Shown here in pieces: positions 12,335 through 62,663 of a DNA stretch of 64,000 nucleotides. Each line of letters opens with the position of its first letter. Position 1 is the stretch's first letter. The DNA is from Escherichia coli (GTDB lineage: Bacteria > Pseudomonadota > Gammaproteobacteria > Enterobacterales > Enterobacteriaceae), in the NCBI RefSeq assembly GCF_044324875.1, contig NZ_CP172185.1; one strand, given 5' to 3'. The notes beneath the pieces were generated by a model, which saw nothing but the letters and a program-made list of their open reading frames with translations, ran no database searches and was not told the DNA's origin. The translations under genes were made by a program, and so were the position numbers.

Positions 12335-13171
12335 ATGAAGAAAAATCGCGCTTTTTTGAAGTGGGCAGGGGGCAAGTATCCCCTGCTTGATGATATTAAA
12401 CGGCATTTGCCCAAGGGCGAATGTCTGGTTGAGCCTTTTGTAGGTGCCGGGTCGGTGTTTCTCAACACCGACTTTTCTCGTTATATCCTTGCCGATATCA
12501 ATAGCGACCTGATCAGTCTCTATAACATTGTGAAGATGCGTACTGATGAGTACGTACAGGCCGCACGCGAGCTGTTTGTTCCCGAAACAAATTGCGCCGA
12601 GGTTTACTATCAGTTCCGCGAAGAGTTCAACAAAAGCCAGGATCCGTTCCGTCGGGCGGTACTGTTTTTATATTTGAACCGCTACGGTTACAACGGCCTG
12701 TGTCGTTACAATCTGCGCGGTGAGTTTAACGTGCCGTTTGGCCGCTACAAAAAACCCTATTTCCCGGAAGCAGAGTTGTATCACTTCGCTGAAAAAGCGC
12801 AGAATGCCTTTTTCTATTGTGAGTCTTACGCCGATAGCATGGCGCGCGCAGATGATGCATCCGTCGTCTATTGCGATCCGCCTTATGCGCCGCTGTCTGC
12901 GACTGCCAACTTTACGGCGTATCACACAAACAGTTTTACGCTTGAACAACAAGCGCATCTGGCGGAGATCGCCGAAGGTCTGGTTGATCGCCATATTCCA
13001 GTGCTGATCTCCAATCACGATACGATGTTAACGCGTGAGTGGTATCAGCGCGCAAAATTGCATGTCGTCAAAGTTCGACGCAGTATAAGCAGCAACGGCG
13101 GCACACGTAAAAAGGTGGACGAACTGCTGGCTTTGTACAAACCAGGAGTCGTTTCACCCGCGAAAAAATAA
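12335..13171 (+). CDS. dam: DNA adenine methyltransferase (GATC N6-adenine)
   Basis: 278-aa ORF with the DPPY catalytic motif (CDPPYAP) and AdoMet-binding N-terminus. Confidence 0.95.
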
Positions 13172-16696: not shown

Positions 16697-16807
16697 ATGG
16701 AAACCAGACTCAACCTGCTTTGCGATGCAGGCGTTATTGATAAGGACATCTGCAAAGGCATGATGCAGGTCGTCAACGTACTGGAAACTGAGTGTCATCT
16801 ACCGGTG
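16697..16807 (+). pseudogene. yhfY: yhfY (PRD-domain protein) 5' fragment, codons 1-37, interrupted by the IS insertion
   Basis: ATG at 16697 gives METRLNLLCDAGVIDKDICKGMMQVVNVLETECHLPV, then the frame runs into IS sequence at 16808. Confidence 0.75.
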
Positions 16808-16906
16808 TGCGTATTCCGCTCTATTCGATCACGGATTGGCATCGAAGTCCGATCAGCGATTCGCATCCATTCGATCAACCGGGAACTTAACTTTTTCTAC
16901 CGCTTT

Positions 16907-17662
16907 TTAACGCGTTTTTTCGCTGCTTTCCACTACCGGGGGATTTTTCCTCAGTGACTCTCCCTGAAGGACCACTCGGTGTGAGTTATGTACCAGTCTG
17001 TCCAGGATGGCATCTGCTGTTGTTGGGTTCTCCATCAGACCATGCCATTTATCTACCGGGAACTGGCTTACCACTATCGTGCTGCTTTGTCCGTAACGAT
17101 CCTCTATGAGCTCCAGAAGGTCATTACACTGGGCGTTACTTAACTGTTCCAGCCCCAGATCGTCCAGGATTAGAACCTGTATTTTTTGCAACTGTTTCAG
17201 ATATTTCAGCCAGCTGCCATCAACACGTCCCTGAGCCAGTTGTTCCAGTAATCGCCCGGTTCTACAGTACCGGACGCTGTGTTTCTGTCGACATGCCTGT
17301 TCGCCCAGCGCATTGGCTATCCAGCTCTTGCCACATCCTGTCGGACCGGTTATCAGCAGGTTTTTCCTGTGGGTTATGTAGTGGCCGTTCAGCAGTTCTC
17401 TCATCTGTTCAGCCCGCAGACCTCTTGAGGCCGGATAGCGCAGCCCTTCCGGTGTTGCCTGGTATTTCAGGCCGGCATTTTTTCTCAACCGTGCCACACG
17501 GCTGTTTTCCCTGCTCAGAAGCTCGTCATCAACCAGCAGCGTCAGCCTTTCCTCGAACGACAGTTCGTCGTAGGTCTGAGGCGTTTCCCGCTGCCGTATC
17601 AGGCTCCCGGCCATCGCCGGGAGTTTCAGTTGGGTCAGTTTGTTTAACAGGTTATCACTCAT
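16907..17662 (-). CDS. istB: IstB helper ATPase (AAA+, DnaC-like) of the IS21-family element
   Basis: Track ORF is extended; likely start ATG at 17662 (MSDNLLNKL...); Walker A GPTGCGKSW and Walker B LILDDLG. Confidence 0.85.
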   Translation of the reverse strand: MSDNLLNKLTQLKLPAMAGSLIRQRETPQTYDELSFEERLTLLVDDELLSRENSRVARLRKNAGLKYQATPEGLRYPASRGLRAEQMRELLNGHYITHRKNLLITGPTGCGKSWIANALGEQACRQKHSVRYCRTGRLLEQLAQGRVDGSWLKYLKQLQKIQVLILDDLGLEQLSNAQCNDLLELIEDRYGQSSTIVVSQFPVDKWHGLMENPTTADAILDRLVHNSHRVVLQGESLRKNPPVVESSEKTR

Positions 17663-17678
17663 ACTGTTGTTCCTTCTG

Positions 17679-19214
17679 TCAGTGGTAGTAGCCCGGACCA
17701 CGCAGGTTTTCATGCTCTGAAGCATATGCCGGATGTTGTTCGCCCTGGCGGGATAATGGAAGCTCCAGGTTCTCCCGATGGTGACGCAGCAGATTGTCGA
17801 TAAAGCGTCTGTCAGGGGCGTTATAGTGCAGGGCAACGTAACAGGCCTTTTCCAGCCGTTCCGGGCCGTATTTTTTCTGAAGTGCCAGCAGCCCCAGAAC
17901 TGCACGATAAGCCAGTTCCGGATGGGGTTTTGCCTTCAGCATGGATTCAACCACCCGGCCTGTGGACGGGCCCGTACGTTTTCCCTGCTCGATCAGGCGT
18001 TCCGGTGTCCATGTCCCGTGCTGCCGGTGGCGCTCTGGCATGTGAAGCGGATTGGTTGTGTGTTTATATTCATGTGTGCTGCGCGGATGTTGCGCCACAC
18101 ACTGCCCCTTGTGCCAGAGCTGTACCACCGACTGCCCCGCCTTCAGTGACAGACGCTGACCGACCAGTTCGTGTGGAACGGAGTACCAGTGACGGGCATA
18201 TTCAACGTGGTAGTCAGGGCCAACCTTCACAGCTTTGTATTCCGTGTATTCATAAGGTGCCAGAGGCAGCGGAGAGAGTGCTGGCGCATCCAGTATGCGG
18301 AAGCGTTCTGCACGGGTTTGATTGCCGTACCCCTTCATTGGCCGGTTATTCATGTCTGTCAGTAACTCCCTAAGGCGCGCATTCAGCGCCCTGAGCGTGT
18401 GGAAGGTTTCATTACGGATGCGGGCAAGAAGCCATCGTTCAACGATGAGGACGCCGTTTTCTGCTTTTGGTTTATCTTTAGGTTTGCGTGGTCGGGCCGG
18501 GATGATAACCGTGCCATAGTGCTCAGCCAGTGCCTGATAACTGTCGTTGATGACAGGCTCATATCGATCGGCCTTTTTCACTGCGCTTCTGAGGTTATCG
18601 GGGATGAGCAGCTTCGGTACGCCGCCCAGGAAGGTCAGGCAACGGCTGTGGGCATTTAACCATGACATCATGTCCTGACCTTCGCACGCTTCAACGTAGG
18701 TATAGTTGGACGCCCCCATTACGGCCACGAAGATTGCCACGCGGCGTATCTCACCGGTGTCCGGATTAATAACAGGAACCGTAGGACCACAGAAGTCGAT
18801 AAAAAGCTTTTCGCCGGCACGATGCTCCTGGCGCATGGAGAGACGTCGCGTTTTTTTCCACTCCCGGTAGCAACGGCAGAAGTGCGAGTATCCCATCGCT
18901 TTGTTACCCGCCTGTGCCTTGTATTCCATCCACAACAGTTGCCGCGTCACACCTGGTTTTCTCATTTCCGTATCGAAGTACAACATGTCAGGCATTACAA
19001 GCTCTGATGCAAAGGTGTCTTTGGGCGGAAAAATGAGTTTCTCCAGCGTGTCATGGGATATATCAGCAGGTAATGGCCATGACAGAGAAGAGGCTTTGAA
19101 GCGGGCAAGAACCTCAAAAACGGTTGAGGCGCTGATGTGTAACGTCAGTCCGATACAACGGTTAGTCAGCTTCTTGTCGAACTTGAGCTGAAGGATCTTA
19201 AAACAGGTTTCCAT
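17679..19214 (-). CDS. istA: IstA transposase (DDE integrase core with N-terminal HTH) of the IS21-family element
   Basis: Track ORF 17679-19325; likely start ATG at 19214 (METCFKILQL...); stop is 16 nt upstream of istB. Confidence 0.85.
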   Translation of the reverse strand: METCFKILQLKFDKKLTNRCIGLTLHISASTVFEVLARFKASSLSWPLPADISHDTLEKLIFPPKDTFASELVMPDMLYFDTEMRKPGVTRQLLWMEYKAQAGNKAMGYSHFCRCYREWKKTRRLSMRQEHRAGEKLFIDFCGPTVPVINPDTGEIRRVAIFVAVMGASNYTYVEACEGQDMMSWLNAHSRCLTFLGGVPKLLIPDNLRSAVKKADRYEPVINDSYQALAEHYGTVIIPARPRKPKDKPKAENGVLIVERWLLARIRNETFHTLRALNARLRELLTDMNNRPMKGYGNQTRAERFRILDAPALSPLPLAPYEYTEYKAVKVGPDYHVEYARHWYSVPHELVGQRLSLKAGQSVVQLWHKGQCVAQHPRSTHEYKHTTNPLHMPERHRQHGTWTPERLIEQGKRTGPSTGRVVESMLKAKPHPELAYRAVLGLLALQKKYGPERLEKACYVALHYNAPDRRFIDNLLRHHRENLELPLSRQGEQHPAYASEHENLRGPGYYH

Positions 19215-19318
19215 AGTGCTCCTGGATTTTCTCTTTCTGGACATTGACGTCTCCACTGGTTTAAACACGGCAATGGAGACTGTGGTGAAAAGAGTTAATT
19301 CCCGGAGTGACTGGCAGG

Positions 19319-19440
19319 ATGCCAATCAATGATCGGAAGCATGCCAAATCGTGATCGATTGTGATGCCAAACTGTGATCGGAGATGGATGCCAAATCATG
19401 ATCGATTCGAATGCCAAACTGCGATCGATTCAGATGCCAT
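19319..19440. repeat. Six tandem direct repeats (period 22-24 bp, core ATGCCAAA..GATCG) at the istA-proximal IS end
   Basis: Copies start at 19319, 19341, 19364, 19388, 19411 and 19434; inverted copies of the motif occur at the other end (16825-16880). Typical of the multi-repeat termini of IS21-family elements. Confidence 0.7.
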
Positions 19441-19446
19441 TTTGCA

Positions 19447-19704
19447 CCGGTGCGCAGCGAGCAAGGAATGATGGCGATGACACATATGGCGAGCGCACTG
19501 ATGCGCAGTCGCCGTGGTGAAGAAATAGAGCCGCTGGACGCCGAATTGCTGGCAGAACTGGCGCAATCCAGCCACTGGCAAGCCGTTGTGCAATTGCATC
19601 AGGTATTGTTGAAGGAATTTGCACTGGAAGTTAACTCGTGTGAAGAAGGCTATTTGCTGGCCAACCTTTATGGATTATGGATGGCCGCGAACGAAGAGGC
19701 CTGA
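19447..19704 (+). pseudogene. yhfY: yhfY 3' fragment (duplicated codons 36-37 then codons 38-120), downstream of the IS
   Basis: Frame PVRSEQGMMAMTHMASALMRSRRGEEIEPLD...ANEEA continues the N-terminal fragment once the IS and one duplication copy are removed. Confidence 0.75.
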
Positions 19705-47526: not shown

Positions 47527-49439
47527 CAGTTGCTTTGGCCTTCCAGCAGCATCTGCTCAAGCTGCTCCTGGGCTTCCAGCCACGCCATTTCGCACTCTTC
47601 CAGGCCGGATTTGGCGCTGGCTTGCTGTTGCAGGCAGGCGGTCAACTCCGCTTTACGGCTTTGATCGTACAGTTCGCTGTCGCCGAGTTTCTCTTCCGCC
47701 TGCGCCAGCTGTGCGTTCAGCTTCTCCATCTCTTTTTCCAGACGGGCAATCTCTTTACGCAGTGGCTGGGTTTGCGCACGCAGCTCCGCTTCCCGACGTT
47801 TCTGATCTTTACGTGCCTGGGCGCTGTTCGCGTTCTCTTTTGGCGCTTCGTCGGTCTGGTTTTCCTGCTTTTGTACGTCGCTCAACCACTGTTGATAATC
47901 TTCCAGATCGCCGTCGAACGGTTCGACTTTATGATCGTGAACCAGGTAGAGATCGTCAGTGGTGGAACGCAGCAAATGACGGTCGTGCGAGACGACAACC
48001 AGCGCGCCTTCGAACTCGATTAATGCTTCGGTGAGTGCCTGACGCATGTCGAGGTCAAGGTGGTTAGTCGGTTCGTCGAGCAGCAGCAGATTCGGACGCT
48101 GCCAGACGATTAATGCCAGCACCAGGCGGGCTTTTTCCCCACCGGAAAAGCGGCGCGTTTCTTCCGTCACTTTATCGCCCTGGAAACCAAAGCCGCCGAG
48201 GTAGTCACGCAGTTTTTGCTCCAGTTCCTGCGGCGCTAAACGTGCCAGATGTTGAATAGGCGATTCGTCGGCGCTCAGGTATTCAAGTTGATGCTGGGCG
48301 AAGTAGCCGAGCTTGATCCCTTTCGCCAGACCAATTTCACCGCTGACTGGCGCAAGTTCACCGGCTAACAGTTTGATTAATGTCGATTTACCCGCGCCGT
48401 TGCGGCCTAGCAGACCAATGCGCGAGCCGGGGACCAGATTCAGTTTAATCGAGTCGAGAATAATGCGATCGCCATAGCCTGCGCTGACCTTTTCCATCTT
48501 CAGTAACGGATTTGGCAGGCTTTCCGGCGCGCGGAAGCTAAAGCGGAACGGGTTGTCGACGTGCGCGGGGGCAATCAGCTCCATACGCTCAAGCATCTTA
48601 ATGCGGCTCTGGGCCTGCTTCGCTTTGGTGGCTTTGGCACGGAAACGGTCGATATAACTTTGCAGATGCGCCACGCGTTCCTGCTGGCTTTCGTACATCG
48701 CTTGTTGCTGCGCCAGACGGGTGGCGCGCTGCACTTCAAACGAACTGTAGTTGCCGGTGTACTCGAACATGCTTTGTTGTTCGATATGAATAATTTTATC
48801 AACGATCGGATCGAGGAAGTCGCGGTCGTGAGAGATCAGGATCAGTGTGCCCTGATAGCTCTTCAGCCATTTTTCCAGCCAGATAACAGCATCGAGATCG
48901 AGGTGGTTAGTCGGTTCGTCGAGCAGCAGCAAGTCTGAACGGCAAATCAGCGCCTGGGCAAGGTTAAGACGCATACGCCAGCCACCAGAGAAATCACTTA
49001 CCGGGCGCTCCAGTTGTTCATTGCTGAAACCGAGGCCGTGCAGCAGGCTGGCGGCACGGGAGCGAATACTCCATGCGTCAATAGCATCCAGCTTGCCATG
49101 AATAGTGGCGATGGCGTGCCCGTCGTTACGTTCGTTGGCGTCGTGTAGCTGCGCTTCCAGTTGACGATATTCACGGTCGCCGTCAATGACATATTCCAGC
49201 GCCGCTTGCGGTAACGCCGGCGTTTCCTGATTCACCCACGCCAGTTGCCAGCTTCCCGGAAAGGTGTAGCTGCCGCCGTCGGCGCTGATTTCATTTTTCA
49301 GCAATGCCAGCAGGGTAGATTTACCACAGCCGTTTTTACCCACCAGGCCGACTTTCTGCCCGGGGTTGATGGTGGCGGTGGCATTATCCAGCAGGACGCG
49401 CACGCCGCGACGAATTTGTAACGAGGAGAAAACAATCAT
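47526..49439 (-). CDS. yheS: YheS, ABC-F family ATPase (tandem ABC domains, no transmembrane domain)
   Basis: 637-aa ORF; two Walker A sites (GKNGCGKST, GRNGAGKST) and two LSGG-type signatures; coiled-coil C-terminus. Confidence 0.9.
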   Translation of the reverse strand: MIVFSSLQIRRGVRVLLDNATATINPGQKVGLVGKNGCGKSTLLALLKNEISADGGSYTFPGSWQLAWVNQETPALPQAALEYVIDGDREYRQLEAQLHDANERNDGHAIATIHGKLDAIDAWSIRSRAASLLHGLGFSNEQLERPVSDFSGGWRMRLNLAQALICRSDLLLLDEPTNHLDLDAVIWLEKWLKSYQGTLILISHDRDFLDPIVDKIIHIEQQSMFEYTGNYSSFEVQRATRLAQQQAMYESQQERVAHLQSYIDRFRAKATKAKQAQSRIKMLERMELIAPAHVDNPFRFSFRAPESLPNPLLKMEKVSAGYGDRIILDSIKLNLVPGSRIGLLGRNGAGKSTLIKLLAGELAPVSGEIGLAKGIKLGYFAQHQLEYLSADESPIQHLARLAPQELEQKLRDYLGGFGFQGDKVTEETRRFSGGEKARLVLALIVWQRPNLLLLDEPTNHLDLDMRQALTEALIEFEGALVVVSHDRHLLRSTTDDLYLVHDHKVEPFDGDLEDYQQWLSDVQKQENQTDEAPKENANSAQARKDQKRREAELRAQTQPLRKEIARLEKEMEKLNAQLAQAEEKLGDSELYDQSRKAELTACLQQQASAKSGLEECEMAWLEAQEQLEQMLLEGQSN

Positions 49440-62174: not shown

Positions 62175-62663
<489 letters not shown>

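Follow-up and report, generated by a model that had tools for sequence, protein, structure and literature searches.

GATC-containing terminal repeats in an ISSso4-like IS21-family element and their reading as multi-copy IstA binding sites

Among the described systems close to the element studied here is the insertion sequence IS5376, which carries 23-bp direct repeats at each end, with a CS1 and a CS2 box separated by about one helical turn in each repeat (PMC10122671). In a cryo-EM structure (PDB 8B4H), IS5376 IstA contacts CS1 through HTH-2 and CS2 through HTH-1 via the major groove, with a minor-groove linker between the two, and an IstA tetramer synapses the two ends as a negative supercoil, an arrangement favoured by the 23-bp spacing (PMC10122671). 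Integration requires two repeats per end, the terminal promoter elements are occluded by bound IstA, and both the oligonucleotides used in that work (TGTTAAAGCCGATGATAAAATCCCCAATATAGCCGGAATAAAATTCCCCA...) and its figure legends place CS1 next to the tip (PMC10122671). The binding of IstA to the repeats and the need for IstB in integration have been shown for IS5376 only (PMC10122671).

The element described in this work belongs to the same family, and its terminal repeats contain the Dam methylation site GATC. In IS10 and IS50, one or two GATCs are located at the inside end and in the transposase promoter, and an effect of their methylation has been demonstrated. A reading of the present DNA from its sequence alone (the sequence-only reading) had suggested methylation-sensitive transposase binding as in IS10 and IS50, and we asked how the repeats are built, how they compare with those of relatives, and which explanation of their GATC sites is best supported.

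The element in yhfY and the register of its repeats

The window, that is, the whole stretch of 64,000 nucleotides of E. coli DNA that was analysed, contains an ISSso4-like IS21-family insertion sequence of 2,639 bp, located at 16808-19446 on the minus strand, which interrupts yhfY downstream of trpS-yhfZ. In its own orientation, the IS sequence starts with 5'-TGCAAAATGG and ends with GGAATACGCA-3'. Its main features are the following.

16808-19446, minus strand: complete ISSso4-like IS, based on full-length identity to annotated istA/istB elements, with the ends placed by alignment with two relatives
16802-16807, no strand: target-site duplication CCGGTG on the istB-distal side; the same hexamer abuts both tips
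19447-19452, no strand: target-site duplication CCGGTG on the istA-proximal side; the same hexamer abuts both tips
17679-19214, minus strand: istA, DDE transposase of 511 aa, based on Pfam rve and Mu-transpos_C_2, the PGAP annotation of an identical copy, and a distant match to the IS5376 IstA structures 8b4h and 8q4d
16907-17662, minus strand: istB, AAA+ helper ATPase of 251 aa, based on Pfam IstB_IS21 (E = 1e-60) and the RefSeq annotation of an identical copy
19287-19305, no strand: arm GAAAAGAGTTAATTCCCGG of an inner 19-bp inverted repeat, which on the RNA pairs with the istA Shine-Dalgarno region
16879-16897, no strand: arm CCGGGAACTTAACTTTTTC of the same inverted repeat, between unit R3 and the istB stop codon

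The gene order is that of the IS21 family, with istA followed directly by istB, and so are the termini, with TG...CA tips (TGCAAAA...ACGCA) and a target duplication of 6 bp, within the expected 4-8 bp; an ISSso4 copy is flanked by a 7-bp target duplication. Over the whole IS, the sequence is 100% identical to copies on E. coli chromosomes and plasmids annotated as IS21-family transposase and ISSso4-family IstB. It falls into the ISSso4 group, with 96.3% nucleotide identity over 2,639 bp to the copy on S. sonnei pMHMC-001 annotated as ISSso4, and its IstA and IstB are 97.7% and 97.6% identical, respectively, to the ISSso4 proteins. The element is a known, active IS21-family IS, a variant of ISSso4 that is very common in enterobacteria. 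Copies covering at least 80% of the element were found in 225 complete E. coli genomes. A single genome had as many as 23 matches when full and partial ones are counted together, and about 1,500 E. coli genomes contain only fragments of the left-end array. The insertion in yhfY was found in none of 5,426 complete E. coli genomes, a collection that does not include the source strain; it is therefore evidently not widespread, and the element has been active in Dam hosts.

The sequence-only reading had described six phased repeats, each with a GATC, between the IS tip and istA of an IS21-family element, and this position was verified. The motif ATGCCAAN5GATCG occurs on the plus strand in five exact copies with a spacing of 22-24 bp, starting at 19319, 19341, 19364, 19388 and 19411; the supposed sixth copy, at 19434, consists of ATGCCA and the IS tip only and lacks a GATC. 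The inverted copies reported for the opposite end are borne out by one exact match (16826-16842) and one with a single mismatch (16850-16866) on the minus strand. The counts of five Dam sites at the istA-proximal end (19331, 19353, 19376, 19400 and 19423, with spacings of 22, 23, 24 and 23) and three at the other (16827, 16851 and 16873, with spacings of 24 and 22) also hold, and an intact dam gene is indeed encoded in the same window, at 12335-13171.

A period-23 array was called by TRF. Beyond the two IS ends, the 64-kb window has no phased chain of three or more GATCs, and a five-long phased chain was obtained in none of 2000 random placements; since the GATCs are copies of one repeated unit, these phasing statistics add little. 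An unusual density of GATC as such was considered and rejected, because five GATCs within 130 bp are found at two further sites of the window, and the phasing alone is unusual. These two sites, 48804-48900 (spacings 5/25/6/56) and 62391-62510 (spacings 11/4/62/39), are unphased.

The array is real, but the register in which it had been read is wrong, as the claimed unit spans two neighbouring units, with the inner box of the first and the outer box of the second. We fixed the register with the IS tip and about 60 relatives as anchors; in these relatives, the tip consensus is TGC(G/A)TATTCC and the first outer box begins at tip position 6. In this register, the natural unit has a period of 23 and consists of an outer box (TTTGGCAT), about 7 variable nucleotides, an inner box (CGATCAC) and another 2-3 nucleotides. 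Multiple direct repeats of about 23 bp at each terminus, as expected for the IS21 family, are thus present: the istA-proximal (left) end comprises six units of 22-24 bp and the right end three, with the same spacing of 22-24 bp.

19421-19441, minus strand: L1, outer box AATGGCAT, inner box CGATCGC, GATC at 19423
19398-19418, minus strand: L2, outer box TTTGGCAT, inner box CGATCAT, GATC at 19400
19374-19395, minus strand: L3, outer box TTTGGCAT, inner box CGATCAC, GATC at 19376
19351-19371, minus strand: L4, outer box TTTGGCAT, inner box CGATCAC, GATC at 19353
19329-19348, minus strand: L5, outer box TTTGGCAT, inner box CGATCAT, GATC at 19331
19307-19326, minus strand: L6, outer box ATTGGCAT, inner box AGTCAC, no GATC
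16813-16832, plus strand: R1, outer box ATTCCGCT, inner box CGATCAC, GATC at 16827
16835-16856, plus strand: R2, outer box ATTGGCAT, inner box CGATCAG, GATC at 16851
16859-16878, plus strand: R3, outer box ATTCGCAT, inner box CGATCAA, GATC at 16873

The GATC lies inside the presumed IstA-binding end sequence, in the inner boxes of eight of the nine units; the exception is L6, whose inner box reads GATCAC in an 83%-identical element of Enterobacter asburiae. The outer boxes of the left end follow (A/T)(A/T)TGGCAT and the inner boxes of L1-L5 follow CGATC(G/A)(C/T), while CGATCA is present in all of R1-R3. The right tip, TGCGTATTCCGC, corresponds to the family consensus tip, and the left tip is deviant.

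On the minus strand, istA has two in-frame ATGs, at 19214 and 19244, which are 10 codons apart (MSRKRKSRST-METCF...) and are each preceded by a Shine-Dalgarno sequence of the GGAG type. RefSeq gives the shorter IstA form for the window sequence, and the N-terminus is 7-11 aa longer in relatives. A parallel to the two starts is seen in IS21, whose transposase and cointegrase isoforms are distinguished by 8 residues at the N-terminus. The istA leader RNA (19205-19310, minus strand) has a stable fold (-30 kcal/mol, z = -2.95). In the predicted structure, the Shine-Dalgarno sequence of the upstream AUG is masked by a hairpin, GUCUCCA...UGGAGAC, and that of the second AUG by the pairing of CUCCGGG and CUCUUUU with AGAAAGAG...CCAGGAG; such a fold may serve the translational silencing of read-through transcripts. 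The 19-bp inverted repeat CCGGGAAnTTAACTnTTTTC, which lies just inside both repeat arrays, is conserved in the 83%-identical Enterobacter element and absent from more distant relatives, and its left arm is also the anti-Shine-Dalgarno strand of the leader fold. An IHF site in this inverted repeat was considered, and inspection by eye gave no convincing match.

Architecture of the repeat unit across the family

To place the repeats in a family context, seven IstA proteins were aligned and one genome per species was scanned. This yielded 80 loci at 43-52% IstA identity from Gamma-, Beta-, Alpha- and Deltaproteobacteria, Firmicutes, Acidobacteria, Nitrospirota and other groups, to which nine plasmid loci were added; the array count with TRF took in the 80 genome loci and six of plasmid origin. 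At nearly every locus with enough upstream sequence, an array with a 23-bp period and 3-5 copies was called in the 420 bp that precede istA. Tip-anchored stacking of the elements with at least three units gave 3-6 left units, with a mode of 4-5, and 2-5 right units in 17 elements. The six left and three right units of the window element are within this family range, the left count being at its upper end. Many relatives (L006, L008, L009, L024, L011, L074 and others) have 4-5 direct units, a CTTTT-like spacer and 2-4 inverted units, which together form a large palindromic block of putative IstA sites before istA; the window element does not have this block.

Unit statistics were compiled from 52 non-redundant elements with at least four units. 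Agreement between the units of one element was 0.88-0.96 at positions 1-6, 0.87-0.95 at positions 15-20 and 0.63-0.82 in the spacer, a profile that defines two boxes separated by a spacer. T3 and C19 are almost universal across elements. At positions 17 and 18, which hold the A and T of GATC, the units of one element hardly differ (agreement of 0.95 and 0.94), and no other box positions vary as much from element to element (1.35 and 1.64 bits). The general form of the inner box is G16-N17-N18-C19-A20-C21, and its variants are GGCCAC (11 elements), TGCCAC (8), GATCA(C/T/G) (8, and 2 more one base out of register), GAACAC (6) and GGACAC (5); GATC is one substitution away from GAAC. From these comparisons, the specificity of the unit appears to be set at positions 17-18, in co-evolution with each IstA. 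The IstA columns that best split GATC-type from other elements (I7, H348, K448 and others) are scattered and phylogenetic-looking, and no recognition residues were derived from them. Several elements without GATC boxes (the L005-L061 arrays from Pseudomonas and Thiocapsa, as well as L083, L054 and L064) have a GATC in the spacer of one unit; in the Pseudomonas elements, unit L3 reads CT[GATC]CGGACAC, and this spacer GATC recurs at the same unit in related elements.

Every GATC is kept in intact elements at 83-100% identity, with variation in the spacers and in some outer boxes. Two remnants on E. coli chromosomes (L090, 1501-1602, and L091, 1501-1711) proved to be IS ends that are truncated and in decay, next to other insertion sequences; for one of the two, the neighbour is IS66, in the ter island of an O157 strain. 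The remnants have lost entire units, and GATCs have changed to GCTC or GTTC. The retention of the GATCs in intact elements and their loss in remnants indicate that the constraint belongs to the live element. A separate MITE-like element was considered for the solo partial matches and rejected, both examined cases being truncated IS ends.

Explanations for the GATC sites

We regard the repeats as the ordinary multi-copy IstA binding sites of an ISSso4-like IS21-family element, in which GATC is a recognition variant of the inner box and not a Dam device, and we assign this reading a probability of about 0.85. Our results establish the anatomy of the repeats, their family-wide architecture, the series of box variants and the host distribution given below. 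That the repeats are IstA sites, as the sequence-only reading had also proposed, is supported by analogy, as their terminal position, 23-bp period and two-box layout match those of the IS5376 repeats (PMC10122671). The GATC would be present because the inner box G-N-N-C-A-C has a lineage-specific central dinucleotide, which here is A-T.

The 23-bp unit, of about two helical turns, is bipartite, and by comparison with IS5376 its outer box (TTTGGCAT) would be the counterpart of CS1, read by HTH-2, and its inner box (CGATCAC) the counterpart of CS2, read by HTH-1. In a phmmer search, the window IstA aligned with 8b4h and 8q4d over residues 75-373, the catalytic region, only (E = 6e-14), so that this assignment of boxes to HTH domains is an analogy and not a demonstrated homology of DNA-binding domains. 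The two outermost units of each end, L1/L2 and R1/R2, would position the IstA tetramer that synapses the ends, and IstB would, by homology, be needed for integration. Because the solved IS5376 tetramer contains two units per end, we infer the function of the extra units L3-L6 and R3: they most likely load more IstA and thereby stabilise the complex, and IstA bound at the inner units may occlude a weak resident promoter or leader, leading to autoregulation. A consensus scan of the whole element (16780-19480) detected no sigma-70-like promoter, which leaves the promoter-occlusion idea without an anchoring site.

The main alternative is a gating of transposase binding by Dam, of the kind known from IS10 and IS50. 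If the eight GATC boxes were fully methylated, IstA would bind them with lower or higher affinity, and the ends would be competent for synapsis, or freed from autorepression, only while hemimethylated just after passage of the fork. This explanation has the attraction that eight GATCs lie in presumed IstA sites of a host with an intact dam gene, that the two specificity positions, probably read through the major groove, are occupied by the methylatable adenines, and that Dam sites within transposase-binding ends are known to control IS10 and IS50. In E. coli, the GATC sites will be methylated, at bases that are also the specificity positions of the box; an effect on IstA binding in this host is chemically plausible, and we consider it doubtful. 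Enterobacterales, Vibrionales, Aeromonadales, Pasteurellales and Alteromonadales were taken as the Dam-carrying clade. Among elements with named hosts, GATC boxes were found in six of nine from this clade (Enterobacterales, Vibrionales, Alteromonadales) versus two of 21 from other orders (Fisher p = 0.003), an enrichment that would not be expected if GATC were purely a recognition variant, unless it stems from shared ancestry. When the lineages were collapsed to about five apparent origins on a neighbour-joining tree of IstA, however, the enrichment was gone (p = 0.21). A literature search for a list of orders carrying Dam, SeqA and MutH found none; a general remark holds that GATC occurs in oriC motifs solely in taxa with a dam gene (PMC7174414).

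GATC boxes are not tied to Dam hosts in either direction, which argues against Dam gating. ISRme9 from Cupriavidus and ISBmu3 from Burkholderia, whose hosts lack Dam, have equally complete sets of boxes, with GATC in all 8-9 left-end units and in both right-end units. Two strains of B. cenocepacia with determined methylomes have CACAG and GTWWAC methylation only, and the same two motifs are found in B. pseudomallei (PMC7364216). GATC-type elements were also detected in one MAG of the Alphaproteobacteria and one of the Acidimicrobiia. Conversely, relatives without GATC in their repeats, which the sequence-only reading had named as evidence that would speak against it, do exist and include elements of the Dam host Aeromonas: the box of ISAs29 is GTGAACAC, and the nearest relative outside the ISSso4 group that was fetched with an array, an Aeromonas element with 51.7% IstA identity, has the box CCGGCCAC. 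One of two Parashewanella elements uses GGACAC and has no GATC boxes, and about 80% of the sampled relatives lack phased GATCs. In addition, the element multiplies well in Dam+ E. coli, the scan found no recognisable promoter that its GATCs could overlap, and no paper linking IS21 with Dam was found in the literature searched. Dam-sensitive binding as in IS10 and IS50 is therefore not favoured, and we judge it unlikely.

Two further explanations have less in their favour. The five GATCs of the left end, on the same helical face and about two turns apart, could form a strong hemimethylated tract for SeqA, which is known to prefer hemimethylated GATCs on the same helical face, so that this end would be transiently hidden from IstA or RNA polymerase after replication. 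The 22-24-bp phasing of the five left-end and three right-end GATCs would suit such capture, but it is fully accounted for by the 23-bp IstA unit, which is common to relatives without GATC, and the same arrays occur in some hosts that, to our knowledge, lack SeqA; SeqA capture thus appears highly improbable. A functionless tandem duplication or a chance cluster of GATCs might be entertained in view of the two other places in the window with five GATCs in 130 bp. Those places are unphased, however, and such an origin is contradicted by a unit architecture that is conserved across phyla at 43-52% protein identity, by boxes that are conserved while spacers vary, and by the decay of the boxes in dead remnants, so that we attach almost no weight to it.

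For Dam hosts, a combined hypothesis can be formulated, which we offer as a speculative and rather improbable extension. Methylation of the eight inner boxes would tune the binding of IstA (HTH-1) and couple the synapsis of ISSso4/ISEc12-type elements, or their release from autorepression, to fork passage, with SeqA possibly competing at the left end, and GATC boxes would for this reason be preferentially retained in Enterobacterales, Vibrionales and Alteromonadales. If true, this would be the first methylation-controlled element of the IS21 family and the first multi-site transposon end with a Dam site in every unit.

Returning to the preferred reading of the repeats as ordinary IstA sites, our findings mainly confirm the known anatomy of the IS21 family in a known kind of structure and a known element. 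What may be useful is the corrected register of the repeat units, the family-wide description of a bipartite unit with two central inner-box positions as apparent specificity determinants, and the finding that in this lineage these positions happen to spell a Dam site. If methylation affects IstA binding, an IS family that is disseminated by plasmids for resistance and virulence would gain a replication-coupled layer of control. Such an effect would be easy to test, given the in vitro system and the structure available for a relative.

Comparison with known multi-site transposon ends

The element shares with IS5376 an istA-istB operon, TG...CA tips, 23-bp direct repeats at both ends and two boxes per repeat about one turn apart; in both, the repeats separate the tip from istA, and IstA bound at this location would cover expression signals. 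It differs in the number of units, which is two plus two in IS5376 versus six left and three right here, and in its transposase, which has about 400 aa in IS5376 and is of the long type, with 511 aa, in the window element. The boxes of IS5376, GCCGA and TCCCCA, are unrelated to TTTGGCAT and CGATCAC and do not contain GATC.

A closer likeness is found within the long-IstA subgroup of the IS21 family, formed by ISSso4, ISEc12, ISRme9, ISBmu3, IS1491 and ISAs29, with which the element has in common the tip TGC(G/A)TATTCC, the 23-bp unit, the inner box GNNCAC and a left end of 3-6 units. GATC is present in every unit of ISEc12, ISRme9 and ISBmu3. In contrast to the subgroup, the left tip (TGCAAAATGG) and the outer box (TTTGGCAT) of the window element deviate from the family ATTCC form, and the element lacks the block of 2-4 inverted units found behind the direct ones in many elements, among them ISEc12, ISRme9 and ISBmu3.

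Phage Mu (sites L1-L3 and R1-R3) and Tn7 (TnsB sites) resemble the element in having several transposase sites per end with left/right asymmetry, a related transposase architecture (tandem HTH, DDE domain and beta-barrel) and an AAA+ partner. Their sites are irregularly spaced and need host factors or extra proteins, whereas the units of the window element form a regular head-to-tail array. With IS10 (Tn10) and IS50 (Tn5), the element shares a GATC within presumed transposase-binding sequence and a host with Dam. It differs from them in that it is known from its sequence alone, that its type of GATC box is also found in hosts without Dam, and that its GATCs occur in eight of nine repeated units, the scan having found no recognisable promoter that they overlap.
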